5,519 bases of DNA from a virus (lineage: Duplodnaviria; Heunggongvirae; Uroviricota; Caudoviricetes), in the IMG/VR virus record IMGVR_UViG_2703718781_000016; one strand, given 5' to 3'. Below the pieces are notes generated by a model. The model ran no database searches, was not told where the DNA came from, and worked only from the letters and a program-made list of their open reading frames with translations. Each line of letters begins with the position of its first letter. Position 1 is the stretch's first letter. Shown here in pieces: positions 768 to 5,519 of this stretch. The translations under genes were made by a program, and so were the position numbers.

Positions 768-3700
768 TCAGCTGATACTGATACCTGCTGTGGATTTTTT
801 CATCACCACAACCAGCAGATCGCTGATACTGGTTGTTGGTGTCCAGTTATTCGCTCCTGATGAAGATACGGTGAATGTCAGTGTCAGCGTCCCCTGTCCG
901 GCAGGCATATCTATAACTGAGGAAAATACGCCCTGAACATCCGTCGTGGACTGATTAAAAATCTCCTGACCATTGCGGGTCACTCTTAACCGGCAGGTTG
1001 AATACCAGTATGACTGTTGGTTATTACTGTTGAAATTCTCATGCTTACCACCGCGGAATAACACTGGCGGTATCATGACCTGCCGGTCAAACTTCTGATC
1101 ATCACTGATTCTTACCGTGATGGTGCCACTGGCATAAGTGCTCGTGCGGGGGAAAGACTTGCTGACCGTTTTGACAATATCGCCTTCAATCTGGTTGGCT
1201 GACAGTTTCCCCTTAATCTGACAGTTCTCATTAATCGTGACGTTGTTGAGCGTCCCTGAGTTCGCATTCACACTGCCACTGATATCCGCATTTTTCGCCG
1301 TCAGTCGCCCGTCCGGCGTCAGGGAAAATGCCGGAGGATTGCCGGATGACGTGATGCTCACCGCAAACAGTCGTTTCAGGAACACGTCGTTCATGAACAG
1401 CTGATTCCCCTGCGCCACAAATAACGGCGTGCTGTTGCCGCTCTCCGGATTTATCATCGCGATACGGTCAGCCAGCAGCAGTATGTTGCTCAGTGGCTGG
1501 CCATCAGTATCCTCAATCCCTGCACCAATCCCGGCCACATAGGGTATGCCATTTTTTGTTTTCTGTACCTTCAGCATGTAAAGTGCAGCAAGGTCATCAT
1601 TTGTGTCCTTCTGCACGCGCTGTATCTGCTGTATGGTGGCGCTCTGGTCCTCCAGCGTTTTACTGACCGTCTGTGTGATTTCATTGCGGGTTTCTGTGAT
1701 GGTGGTCTGCATTTCCGCCATCTCGTCCTTCAGCTGACTGTTGTCAATCTCTGCCCACAGCGCCTCTGCCAGATGCGTTTTTCCTATCTTTTCCCGGAAA
1801 AGTTCCAGATAGCCCGCAGCATCATTGCTCGCCCGTCCACTGGCTTCCACAAAAGCAGATTTACCCACCAGGTTGACGCTGCGCACATAAAACCAGAAAT
1901 CCTTTCCGGGCTTAATGTGCGGACCGGAGACACTCCACTGACTGCCGGTCCCCAGATAACGGGCAGAGGTTTCCACCTGTGCGGCGTCTGCAATTTTTGC
2001 CTCCGAAAACCAGAACTCAAACTGCACCGTCGGGTCATAAATGGTCAGTTTCGGGACTGCCGTTATCTGAAAATAGCCCGGTGTCAGCTCAATCGTGGCG
2101 GGTACCGCAGGTGCATTAATCCTGAACGTGGTGGTGGCCGGTTCCCCCTGCTGGCCATAACTGTTAATTGCCCTGACTGTCAGGGTGTATTCCCCGAGCG
2201 GCAGACCACTGAAACGATGCTCTGTATCCGCAGTGATGGCGGTGGTCACCAGACGGCTGTCTTCTCCGCTTCCGCTGGTCAGGCGCAGACTGAAGCGCAC
2301 ACCCTTCACCACCCGCGGCGTGTCCCATTTCGCCTGTGCCAGATACTGGCCGTCAGCTGCGCTCACCTCCACCGTCAGGTGCTGCACTGCCGGAGGGATG
2401 ACGCTGTTCAGGGTGCCGCTCTGGTCGCCGTCAAAGTGCGCCCCGTTATCCACGATGGCTTCTTTCTCCGGCACATGCTGCACTGCCGTGATGGCAAAGG
2501 TACCGTCCGTGTTTTCCCGGATGGAAACACAGCGGAACAGGCGACGACGCAGTGACGGCAGGGATAGTCCCCATACACCGTATGTCTCCACACCATCAGG
2601 CAGGGTGCTGACCTGTATCCGGTCCGGCGCGGGGTGTGCGGTGATGTCCACACTCACCGGCTTACCGCTGCCGTTAATCAGGTTCACCGTGGCGGCACCG
2701 GTCTCCGGCAGTGTCACCTCACGGTCCAGCGTCAGGGTGCGGCTGGCGGCATCGATGGACAGGACACGTCCGCCGGTCATGGTCCCGGCATAGTCGTTAT
2801 CACAGATTTCAATAATGTCACCGGGTGTGTGACGCAGCCCCTGTGACCCGAGCGTGAAATCCACCGTCTGCGTTTCCAGCAGTCCGGTCTTTATCACCCA
2901 CAGCCCGGCACGGTGGGCCTGACCGCGACTGGTGCAGCCGAACGCATCCATCTTCAGCAGGTTGCGCCCGTAGCGCAGTATGGCTTCCGGGTCTTCCACC
3001 AGTTCCGTGGAGGTCTGCCAGCCGTTCTGCGGGTCGGTGTAATTCACCTCCACCGCCGTGTGGCGGTCCTTCAGGGCGCTGAAGCTGTAGCGGAACCCCA
3101 CGCCGTTATCATCCACCACCACATCGCTGTTGGTGTACGGCCACACCGCATCCGACGGGCGGTCCTGAACGAACGTCAGCGTCTGGCCGTTCCATACCGG
3201 CATACAGCGCATCGCCGAGCAGAAATCACTGAGAACGTCCCACGCCTTACGCTGTTGTGACAGGTACGCATTAAAGGTCATCCGCGGCTCTGTCCCTCCG
3301 AAGCCGTCCGGGACACGCTGGTCACAGTACTGCCCGATGGCATACAGCGCCCACTTGTCCACATCCGCGGCCCCCAGGCGTTTTCCCATGCCGTAGCGCG
3401 GGTGAGTCAGCATGTCCCACAGGCACCAGGCCGGGTTGTTGCTGTATGCCGGTTTCAGGCTGCCGTCCCAGATGCCGCTGTACGTGCGTTTTTCCGGGTC
3501 ATAGTTTGACGGTACCTGAATGATGCGACCGCGGATATGGTAGTTCACCGTCATCTGCTGACCGCCAAACTGCTCCGCATCCACCTGCAGCCCCACAATC
3601 GCCGTGTTCGGGTAGCACTGTTTCACATCGATGATTTCGGTGTATGACGACCAGAGCGTCTTATTCTGCAGCTGGTCCGTGGTGCTGTCCGCCGTCTCCC

Positions 3701-4247
3701 TGACCATCCGGATGTTAAAGGGGCGGGGAGGCAGATTCTCCAGAATCACCGACGCCAGGTACTGTGAGGTGGTCTTGCCGTTAATGGTGACATCCTTTTC
3801 CGTCACCCAGTTACCGTTACGCTGCAACTGAATCAGCAGTCGGACAGAAGAGGGATTACGGTCGCCCTTTGAGGTGGTCTCCAACAGTGACTGCACCCCG
3901 AAGGTGACCCGCAGGCGGTCAATGTTCGCGGACGTAATGGTGCGCGTCACCGGCTTTGCCTTCGTCACTTCCACGCCCAGTGCGGTTTCAGCTCCGGAGG
4001 ACTCAAAGCCTTCAGGTGGTGTCTGCTCCTGCTCCCCGGCGCGCCAGACCGCTGTCACACCATGTATCACAGGATTACCGTCCGTGTCCGTCAGCGGGGT
4101 TTTGTTCACCAGGATACTCTGCAACCCCTTCACCGAACCTTCAATCGGCCCTTCACCAATGGCGTCAATCACGCTCATCATCTGCGTGGACTTAAGATTG
4201 TCCTTTGCCTCTACCGGCGTGTGCGCCTTGCCGCCACCTTTACCCAC
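768..4247 (-). CDS. J: Tail tip host-specificity protein J (central tail fibre), lambda gpJ homolog; 1159 aa with the GTG start
   Basis: The long minus-strand ORF (768..4307 in the track). From the position aligned to the lambda J N-terminus (lambda [30 protein letters not shown]...; here [31 protein letters not shown]...), long stretches are near-identical to lambda J as I recall it (for example [55 protein letters not shown]). I place the start at the GTG at 4245-4247 because it is preceded by the Shine-Dalgarno GGAGAGGGGGA with 5-nt spacing and aligns with the lambda start. The upstream ATG at 4307 would add 20 residues translated through the heptamer repeat tract. Confidence 0.9.
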
Positions 4248-4251
4248 TCGG

Positions 4252-4262
4252 TCCCCCTCTCC
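4252..4262 (-). promoter_or_regulatory. Shine-Dalgarno / ribosome-binding site for J
   Basis: Minus-strand sequence GGAGAGGGGGA followed by ACCGA and then GTG. It is purine-rich and complementary to the 16S rRNA 3' end. Confidence 0.55.
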
Positions 4263-4290
4263 TGTCTGATGTCTGATGTCTGATGTCTGA
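4263..4290 (-). repeat. Perfect tandem heptamer repeat, (TGTCTGA)x4 on the plus strand = (TCAGACA)x4 on the coding strand, in the J 5' leader
   Basis: Read directly: four contiguous identical 7-bp units at 4263-4269, 4270-4276, 4277-4283 and 4284-4290, followed by a degenerate partial unit (atctg). The tract lies between the minus-strand terminator-like hairpin and the J RBS. Confidence 0.9.
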
Positions 4291-4305
4291 ATCTGTTTAT
4301 GCCCC

Positions 4306-4336
4306 AAAAACGACAGGCACCCCGGAGGGTGCCTGT
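4306..4336 (-). terminator. Terminator-like hairpin inside the I-J intergenic region (minus strand)
   Basis: On the minus strand: ACAGGCACCC-UCCG-GGGUGCCUGU (perfect 10-bp stem at 4313-4322/4327-4336, 4-nt loop), then CG and UUUUU (complement of 4306-4310). This is the classic intrinsic terminator architecture, on the same strand as the tail genes. Confidence 0.5.
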
Positions 4337-4470
4337 GTCATGACGGAATAAAATTTCTGAATTTCTTCACATTTTCTGTACGCCCCCGTGGCAGATATCA
4401 TTCCCGGGCGTTACAGTTTTTTCGGGCCAATAAAAACAAAACTCCCTGTGGTTAATCTTCATTTTCTGTT

Positions 4471-4502
4471 CCCGCAGCCTCCATACACTGCGGGATTTTT
4501 TT
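4471..4502 (+). terminator. Terminator-like hairpin on the plus strand (antisense to the tail operon), abutting the I stop codon
   Basis: On the plus strand: CCCGCAG-CCUCCAUACA-CUGCGGG (7-bp stem at 4471-4477/4488-4494, 10-nt loop), then A and UUUUUUU (4496-4502). On the minus strand the same hairpin follows the I stop codon but is preceded, not followed, by the homopolymer run. Confidence 0.45.
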
Positions 4503-4507
4503 ATGCT

Positions 4508-5188
4508 TTACCCCTGCCGCCCGATAACCACCACCTTCCCGTCACCGCCTTCATCACGGGTACTGATGTCCTGGGAGATTCGCCGTGAGCCAACCAGCAT
4601 TTCACCGTAAGGCACCGGCATCGGGTTCCCCTGAGCAATCATGTTATCCAGCGACGAAAAGTACGTGTTCTGTTTACCGTTATCCGTTGCCCTGTATTCC
4701 GGTGTTTTTGGCTTCGGGGCCAGCATCTGTGCCACACCACCCAGTATCATGCTGGCACCCAGTGAAAACAGCATCGTGGTGGCAGAAAAACCGCCGGCAC
4801 TCAGCGCTGCACCCCAGGCTGCCATCGATGCTCCGGCCGTGAAGAAAGAGCCCACGATGGCTGCCGCCCCCAGCACAATCTGCAGTCCGCCCTTTCCGGC
4901 TCCGGCCAGTCGCGGCACAATATGGATGACCGCCCCCTCACCCAGAGGTTCGTGAAGACGGGCGTACACCGCCTCCGGTGCCGTGTCCTCACCGCGAATA
5001 CGTATCTGGTACCAGCCTTCGTTCATCTGACGGCGGAATCCCGGCACCTGTAACGACAGCGCCCGGATGGCTTCCGCTGCCGTGTTCACGTACAGGCTGA
5101 GGCGGCGGCCAAATCGTTGCAAATCCCCGTGAAGGCAGATGCGTGCCAGTGGCGGTGACGCCAGACAGAATGCGTTCGTCGTTGCCAT
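4508..5188 (-). CDS. I: Tail assembly protein I (lambda gpI homolog)
   Basis: 226-aa ORF. Motifs ARICLHGDLQRFGRR, AVIHIVPR, the Gly/Ala-rich hydrophobic segment QIVLGAAAIVGSFFTAG...FSLGASMILGGVAQMLAPK and TDNGKQNTYFSSLDNM match lambda gpI as I recall it. The start lies 103 nt inside the 3' end of K, the same overlap as lambda K/I by my recollection of lambda coordinates. Possible RBS GAGAGG upstream. Confidence 0.9.
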   Translation of the reverse strand: MATTNAFCLASPPLARICLHGDLQRFGRRLSLYVNTAAEAIRALSLQVPGFRRQMNEGWYQIRIRGEDTAPEAVYARLHEPLGEGAVIHIVPRLAGAGKGGLQIVLGAAAIVGSFFTAGASMAAWGAALSAGGFSATTMLFSLGASMILGGVAQMLAPKPKTPEYRATDNGKQNTYFSSLDNMIAQGNPMPVPYGEMLVGSRRISQDISTRDEGGDGKVVVIGRQG

Positions 5189-5519
5189 TTTTCGGAATAC
5201 CTCTCCCGTTTACTCAGTTGTTCAGGCAGATGGTGAAGCAGTTCACCGTTGCCGCAGTAAATGGCGGCATGATTGGCCACCGATGCGCCAAAGCAGCACA
5301 GCAGGATATCGCCCGCCTGTGCAGAGGACAGGGGCACCCGGTAAAAGCCGGTGACCGCCATATTGTCCAGGTAAAGGTTCTGACCGTTGCGCCACCAGTC
5401 ATCCTCACGCTCAAAATCCGGCATATCAATTCCCGCCAGATGGTATGCATCCCGGAACAGCGTGTAACAGTCCGTCACCCCGTGCTCAAAGCGCCGTCCT
5501 GTCAGATGTGGCACACAGC
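5086..5519 (-). CDS. K: Tail assembly protein K (lambda gpK homolog), C-terminal part only; N-terminus lies beyond the window edge
   Basis: The open frame runs to the window end (the first in-window Met at 5514 is not the true start). The visible part has a Cys (VTDCYTLF) and downstream His residues (ANHAAIY, LLHHL) consistent with the NlpC/P60-type papain-like fold attributed to gpK. Placement immediately upstream of and overlapping I fits the lambda K-I-J-lom order. Confidence 0.85.
   Translation of the reverse strand, partial: CVPHLTGRRFEHGVTDCYTLFRDAYHLAGIDMPDFEREDDWWRNGQNLYLDNMAVTGFYRVPLSSAQAGDILLCCFGASVANHAAIYCGNGELLHHLPEQLSKRERYSEKWQRRTHSVWRHRHWHASAFTGICNDLAAASACT

Follow-up and report, generated by a model that had tools for sequence, protein, structure and literature searches.

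Variable copy number of a heptamer tandem repeat in the untranslated leader of J, the tail-tip gene of STEC-type lambdoid prophages

The I–J junction and its repeat

The window analysed here (the whole stretch of 5,519 nucleotides, IMG/VR virus record IMGVR_UViG_2703718781_000016) carries tail genes, and the 411 bases around its repeat match a prophage region of Escherichia coli O145:NM strain FWSEC0002 at 100%. RefSeq annotates a frameshifted C40 peptidase (lambda K), a tail assembly protein (I) and a 'phage attachment tail tip protein J' on the minus strand, and Pfam matches comprise NlpC/P60 (K), Lambda_tail_I (I), FNIII-A_GpJ (J) and Ail_Lom (lom). Together, these annotations show that the window has, on its minus strand, the K–I–J–lom end of a lambdoid tail operon. 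Upstream of I, the K-like C40/NlpC-P60 peptidase gene (window 5086–5514, minus strand; 1738–2475 in locus L001) is frameshifted in the annotation of the source genome, so the tail module of this prophage may be defective. The 3′ part of J has two imperfect tandem repeats of its own (window 1199–1241 and 1366–1400, with periods of 19 and 15, 2.3 copies each and 81–84% matches). Searched against Rfam with a permissive threshold, the whole window gave no credible family. The features discussed below are the following.

768–4247, minus strand: gene J, tail-tip/host-specificity protein (RefSeq; Pfam FNIII-A_GpJ, E 2e-42; alignment with lambda J)
4248–4262, minus strand: purine-rich Shine-Dalgarno region GGAGAGGGGGACCGA (read from the sequence; conserved in ~130 loci)
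4263–4290, minus strand: variable-number tandem repeat (TCAGACA)x4 in the untranslated J leader (Tandem Repeats Finder; copy variation in homologous loci)
4291–4305, minus strand: left part of the J-linked leader, GGGGCATAAACAGAT (adjoins the repeat in all heptamer-type loci)
4306–4336, minus strand: intrinsic-terminator-like hairpin between I and J (terminator scan; fold; conservation)
4356–4401, plus strand: putative promoter of the antisense sRNA (invariant TCTGAATTTCTTCACA at 4356–4371; −10 TATCAT at 4396–4401)
4408–4502, plus strand: predicted antisense sRNA gene of the EcOnc22/23/24 family, separate from the repeat (Sakai Hfq peaks; terminator; −10)
4508–5188, minus strand: gene I, tail assembly protein, stop codon 4510–4508 (Pfam Lambda_tail_I; RefSeq)

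Read 5′ to 3′ on the minus strand, the junction runs from the I stop codon through a spacer with a hairpin to CGTTTTT, GGGGCATAAACAGAT, the four heptamer units, GGAGAGGGGGACCGA and the GTG of J, with 260 nt between the two genes. The hairpin consists of the stem-loop ACAGGCACCCTCCGGGGTGCCTGT (4336–4313), followed by CG and T5 (4310–4306); a terminator scan describes it as a 10-pair stem with seven GC pairs and a 4-nt loop before CGTTTTT, its fold has a predicted energy of −25.4 kcal/mol (z −3.9), and it is nearly invariant among 35 spacer types. Intrinsic (Rho-independent) terminators have a G+C-rich stem-loop and, directly after it on the transcribed strand, a T-run, and we regard the hairpin as a candidate of that class. 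A perfect 8-bp palindrome, GTCATGAC, adjoins it at 4337–4344 and is likewise invariant across spacer types.

The repeat itself is unambiguous. Tandem Repeats Finder reports period 7 and 4.0 copies at 4263–4290, with 100% matches and no indels. A two-unit pattern, allowing at most one mismatch, is confined to the tract within the window and had no match in 200 dinucleotide-preserving shuffles, so the array is far beyond chance expectation. The original prediction had described a perfect four-unit tract, unlikely by chance, lying on the J strand between a terminator hairpin and the ribosome-binding site and forming a CA-rich single-stranded leader. The coordinates and the minus-strand reading agree with this description, and the last point holds as a prediction, the C/A-rich tract being 0.6–0.7 unpaired in folds. 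Upstream of the array, GGGGCATAAACAGAT includes a degenerate unit, ACAGAT, and is replaced by other sequence in O121-type and lambda leaders. Downstream, the Shine-Dalgarno region abuts the last unit directly, with GGAGAGG at 4262–4256.

J starts at GTG (4247–4245) in the RefSeq annotation, and residue 1 of the GTG-initiated protein aligns with residue 1 of lambda J (MGKG…), with 81% identity over 37 aa. Both observations place the repeat in the 5′ untranslated leader. The phage lambda I–J junction has the same order of an I stop, a hairpin with a T-run (CCGCCTGCGGGCGGTTTTGT), a short leader, a Shine-Dalgarno and a J start encoding MGKG…, and the presence of hairpin and T-run at the same place indicates that the I–J hairpin is ancestral to the junction. 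The lambda spacer measures 60 nt and has no sRNA insert and no heptamers, with J starting at ATG, whereas that of the window is ~200 nt longer, contains both the antisense sRNA gene and the repeat, and precedes a GTG start.

Repeat number among related junctions

The I–J junction occurs in 886 of 5,426 complete E. coli genomes, mostly STEC/EHEC, at a median of 6 places per genome, and in 134 phage records, nearly all of them Stx-converting phages. A first alignment of ten junctions contained four units in the window and in one O157:H7 strain and two units in seven others; the remaining O121 allele is without the array, differs in leader sequence and starts J with ATG. We then counted units at 134 loci, comprising the window, IMG/VR contigs found by an exact-pattern scan and fetched genome regions, one of which duplicates the window. 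Two units were present at 115 loci, three at seven, four at eight, five at two and eight at one, and the last locus is cut by a contig end. All units at these loci are perfect. Synthetic junction queries against complete E. coli genomes recovered the 4-unit allele in ~99 of 772 matching records (many of them O157:H7), the 3-unit allele in at least 12 and the 5-unit allele in several, with six units in one genome (RM14516) and eight in another (OkiPb01681).

Unit number varies independently of the flanking background. Where 250 nt upstream and 30 nt downstream are identical, one group of loci differs solely in having four or three units and a second group in having two, three or five; conversely, the 4-unit allele is seen on two different J 5′ backgrounds. 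Different unit numbers within the same flanks are the pattern expected of in-place replication slippage. Short head-to-tail units, differences by whole units (2, 3, 4, 5, 6 or 8) and variation in place within the same flanks together characterize a variable-number tandem repeat (VNTR). The slippage-prone simple-sequence repeat suggested originally is thereby supported, and the polymorphism across related I–J junctions removes invariance of copy number, which had been named as one half of what would count against it.

Change nonetheless appears infrequent. Some 93 records of O157:H7 type keep four units, with three in one related record (HB6) on that background, so that, judged by the divergence between strains, the locus does not look hypermutable; another phage lineage has two, three, five and eight. 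It resembles the 6–7-bp VNTRs used as MLVA loci of E. coli O157 in its short, perfect head-to-tail units, its intergenic or prophage location and its whole-unit differences between close strains, also within identical flanks. Compared with those typing loci, the heptamer tract appears much more stable (~93 O157 genomes with four units, one with three). It is also not a single-copy typing marker, since each genome has it in several prophages (a median of 3 junction copies). The repeat does provide a small, easily scored length marker that separates otherwise near-identical Stx-phage tail modules. Searches of the accessible literature for O157 combined with the heptamer unit in each of its rotations, and for the locus tags of Sakai J and I, found nothing, and a scan for the leader in species-representative genomes yielded two unrelated 19-mer coincidences only, both in metagenome-assembled genomes. 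In terms of the literature the tract is a newly described locus of a very familiar class.

A predicted antisense sRNA gene in the I–J spacer

A predicted sRNA gene, antisense to J, lies in the same spacer. Tree et al. 2014 (PMC4104026, Table S2) listed the homologous Hfq-bound sRNA candidates EcOnc22 (Sp15), EcOnc23 (Sp14) and EcOnc24 (Sp11), of which EcOnc22 gave a northern band of ~85 nt and was destabilised without Hfq; the target of the family is listed as unknown in a review (PMC7873438). Their coordinates map into the I–J spacers of Sakai Sp15, Sp14 and Sp11, opposite J. Between Sakai NC_002695.2 and the 2014 table we measured an offset of ~+137 nt using HnrS (EcOnc10–12), whose sequence was recognised from its published properties (PMC13502914). 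Unadjusted 2014 coordinates (loci L011–L015) put HnrS ~130 nt from its true position. Without the correction the EcOnc22 Hfq peak would fall on the heptamers, a placement that the shift in the HnrS control rules out; the corrected peak covers the single-stranded sRNA body and the 5′ half of the plus-strand terminator, >100 nt from the repeat.

We predict that the window carries an allele of the known but uncharacterised EcOnc22–24 antisense sRNA gene. The allele is divergent, and it shares promoter geometry, the body GUUAAUCUUCA and the terminator with Sakai EcOnc22/23/24. The repeat occupies the same I–J spacer as these sRNAs but lies on the opposite strand, 120–240 nt away, and is separate from them. 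The plus-strand terminator has stem arms at 4471–4477 and 4488–4494, followed by T7 at 4496–4502. Predicted sRNA lengths are 89–101 nt across spacer types and ~95 nt in the window, as compared with the ~85-nt northern band. Invariant among the 35 spacer types are the plus-strand terminator stem, the motif GUUAAUCUUCA…AACUCC (4451–4461 and 4440–4445 in the sRNA body of the window) and a 70-nt block made up of the I–J hairpin and AAATGTGAAGA..TTCAGAA.TTTTATTCCGTCATGAC.

Conservation also extends to the putative promoter. A −10-like hexamer (TATAAT, AATAAT or TATCAT) stands exactly 24 nt after an invariant TTCACA in 33 of the 35 spacer types, including the window (TATCAT), and in the other two a 1-nt deletion brings it 1 nt nearer, while the 24 nt in between belong to four unrelated sequence families. 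The invariant block upstream of the promoter includes a CRP-like palindrome, TCTGA-N6-TCACA (4356–4371, plus strand). One match was found with 0.23 expected by chance, and its centre would miss the canonical class II position by ~3 nt; a CRP site here is a weak lead.

The 70-nt block is better explained as the ancestral I–J hairpin joined to the region upstream of the plus-strand sRNA promoter than as a minus-strand sRNA, for which no promoter was found and no minus-strand Hfq peak is listed. Other candidates were likewise set aside. HnrS (EcOnc10–12) was rejected as the conserved spacer element, as it sits between the lysis genes and terminase, and PasB is unlikely to be the I–J sRNA given its single-copy distribution in ETEC and EAEC. 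A hha target common to the EcOnc22-like sRNA and HnrS through UAAUCUUC was rejected at 0.07 and 0.88 of shuffles, against 0.018 for HnrS.

Two further observations concern the spacer. A short minus-strand open reading frame (4461–4366) starts at ATGAAGATTAAC and has 31 codons here and 39 in the Sakai type; the antisense sRNA overlaps it entirely, a layout superficially like a type I toxin–antitoxin pair. Conservation is confined to its first four codons, so it is probably not a real gene. Some junctions, in strain SCU-171 (L010) and in O91/O104-type STEC (L133–L135, L137), have an extra partial or complete spacer module upstream, with a second hairpin and a second GAAATGTGAA.AAATTCAGAA.TTTTATTC block, which suggests tandem duplication of the sRNA cassette. 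As the site of a widespread, multicopy, Hfq-bound antisense sRNA gene with strikingly conserved promoter geometry, the spacer merits more attention than the repeat.

Origin and possible role of the tract

We hold with moderate confidence that the repeat is most likely an ordinary VNTR, close to neutral, within a leader that is unstructured. We propose that replication slippage in the untranslated J leader of STEC-type lambdoid prophages gave rise to it. The ancestral leader probably had one TCAGACA-like unit, the two-unit form would have become the common allele, and occasional slippage would gain or lose whole units to give 3, 4, 5, 6 or 8. In the late, Q-antiterminated transcript, the tract would then serve as an unstructured C/A-rich spacer from the I–J hairpin to the J Shine-Dalgarno, where it may non-specifically provide the ribosome with a stretch of open 'standby' RNA. 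The precise length of the tract would be nearly neutral, and it would have no sequence-specific partner.

Predicted structure is consistent with near-neutrality. We folded the leader with 0–8 units in three transcript contexts, and the unpaired probability of the Shine-Dalgarno and start codon is flat from one to eight units in all three (0.63–0.69 for the Shine-Dalgarno in the full context from the I stop to J). The earlier suggestion that repeat number alters structure upstream of the J ribosome-binding site thus finds no support for one to eight units; folding with and without repeats sets the 0-unit construct alone apart, in just the longest of the three contexts, where predicted Shine-Dalgarno accessibility is 0.31 instead of ~0.65. 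This drop indicates that some spacer may matter. The two-unit form also persists in many otherwise divergent spacers, which could reflect constraint instead of linkage to the conserved J 5′ end.

A modest role for tract length in translation is the foremost alternative, although we think it improbable. The number of C/A-rich units would set the length of a ribosome standby or enhancer segment between hairpin and Shine-Dalgarno and so modulate the output of J, on the premise that J is required in just a few copies per virion. In E. coli, leaders rich in C and A are known to enhance translation. The tract abuts the Shine-Dalgarno and is mostly single-stranded in prediction, J begins with a weak GTG downstream of a strong hairpin, an arrangement that can make effects of the leader important, and removal of all units lowers predicted accessibility as above. 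Against this stand the flat accessibility from one to eight units in three contexts and the lambda and O121-type J leaders, which work without the tract. Moreover, two units dominate with rare, scattered expansions, as expected for mutation pressure and not for tuning.

A stronger version, in which the array is a heritable, slippage-adjustable 'rheostat' for J translation, acting through standby-site length or through variable sites for an RNA-binding factor of lytic growth, is less probable again. If it were true, prophage lineages would differ in tail-tip protein supply or infectivity. Any effect of copy number on J translation would offer a simple route to varied tail-tip production, but nothing found points there. 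The tract shares with contingency loci of Neisseria and Haemophilus a unit length that is not a multiple of three and a position beside a surface or host-interaction gene. Repeats that drive phase variation lie within a reading frame or between −35 and −10 elements, whereas this one lies outside the J frame, 5′ of the Shine-Dalgarno and GTG, in a transcript from a distant late promoter, and no on/off consequence is predicted. Promoter-like sites were sought on both strands of 4000–4800 and none was found, so the tract does not space promoter elements.

Repeated identical motifs beside a ribosome-binding site are a typical layout for a multimeric binding platform or sponge, in which UCAGACA units would bind a UGUCUGA-like sRNA or an RNA-binding protein, thereby regulating J or titrating the regulator. 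We compared leader–sRNA duplexes with shuffled-leader controls for four sRNAs, namely MicF and GcvB (query sequences confirmed as 100% identical core-genome sequences), HnrS and the neighbouring EcOnc22-like antisense sRNA; as a positive control, HnrS recovered its published hha site at 0.018 of shuffles. MicF UCUGAAUGUCUGUUUACCCC can form an interrupted 18-bp duplex with the leader (−22.4 kcal/mol), but a fraction of 0.15 of the shuffled leaders pair at least as well, which is not significant, and the duplex involves mostly the left flank, not the units. Shuffled leaders paired equally well or better in fractions of 0.83 for GcvB, ~0.65–0.8 for HnrS and ~0.6–0.8 for the EcOnc22-like sRNA, so that the search for sRNAs complementary to UCAGACA repeats, proposed originally, gave nothing significant among the four. 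Read from the sequence, the units have neither in-phase A-R-N triplets nor a GGA motif. At corrected coordinates, Table S2 of Tree et al. 2014 (PMC4104026; non-induced cultures) has no Hfq peak at the heptamers; the spacer's published Hfq-crosslinking peak is on the other strand, >100 nt off, and none is listed on the J strand. The unstructured C/A-rich stretch just 5′ of the Shine-Dalgarno does resemble translation-enhancing leaders and the GcvB-target leaders of ABC-transporter mRNAs; unlike the latter, it has no significant GcvB complementarity and no listed J-strand peak. A binding platform is accordingly a doubtful explanation.

It is still less likely that the repeat is a scar of the recombination that joined the J cassette to the upstream I/sRNA module, as had also been suggested. 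The region is indeed mosaic, with several unrelated upstream spacer versions set against a conserved hairpin and J 5′ end. The break in the leader, however, lies elsewhere, as O121-type and heptamer-type sequences, like those of lambda, part at the terminator T-run, 15 nt upstream of the repeat. The O121-type allele departs from the window right after the T-run and rejoins it at the J start codon, and its leader (…TAACAGTTATCACAG…) aligns with …TAAACAGATTCAGACAG…, looking like a diverged single-unit version. The repeat stays with the J-proximal leader in every one of the 35 spacer backgrounds, and its unit number varies within identical flanks, unlike recombination joints.

We dismiss almost entirely the reading in which J starts at an upstream codon at 4307 and the repeat encodes an N-terminal extension: that codon is in the J frame with four units and is used in one deposited annotation, but seven is not a multiple of three and alleles with 2, 3, 5, 6 or 8 units lose the frame, which means that the extension is not genuinely coding, while RefSeq and two other phage records use the GTG, before which the purine-rich Shine-Dalgarno stands and from which the protein aligns with lambda J at residue 1. 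The upstream start had been given as an ATG chosen by open reading frame callers. The codon is TTG, but the behaviour described is real, and the accompanying warning of apparent frameshifts in mis-annotated J N-termini proved justified. In phage 2851 (FM180578.1; L142 403–462), J (vhsJ) is annotated from the TTG in the terminator T-run, through a 4-unit repeat, whereas in phages 1717 and Stx2a_F349, where this junction is laid out identically, J is annotated from GTG; the phage 2851 N-terminus is likely mis-annotated. In annotations of J, the repeat thus gives rise to apparent frameshifts and to falsely extended N-termini, and gene callers and comparative pipelines would best anchor J at the GTG.
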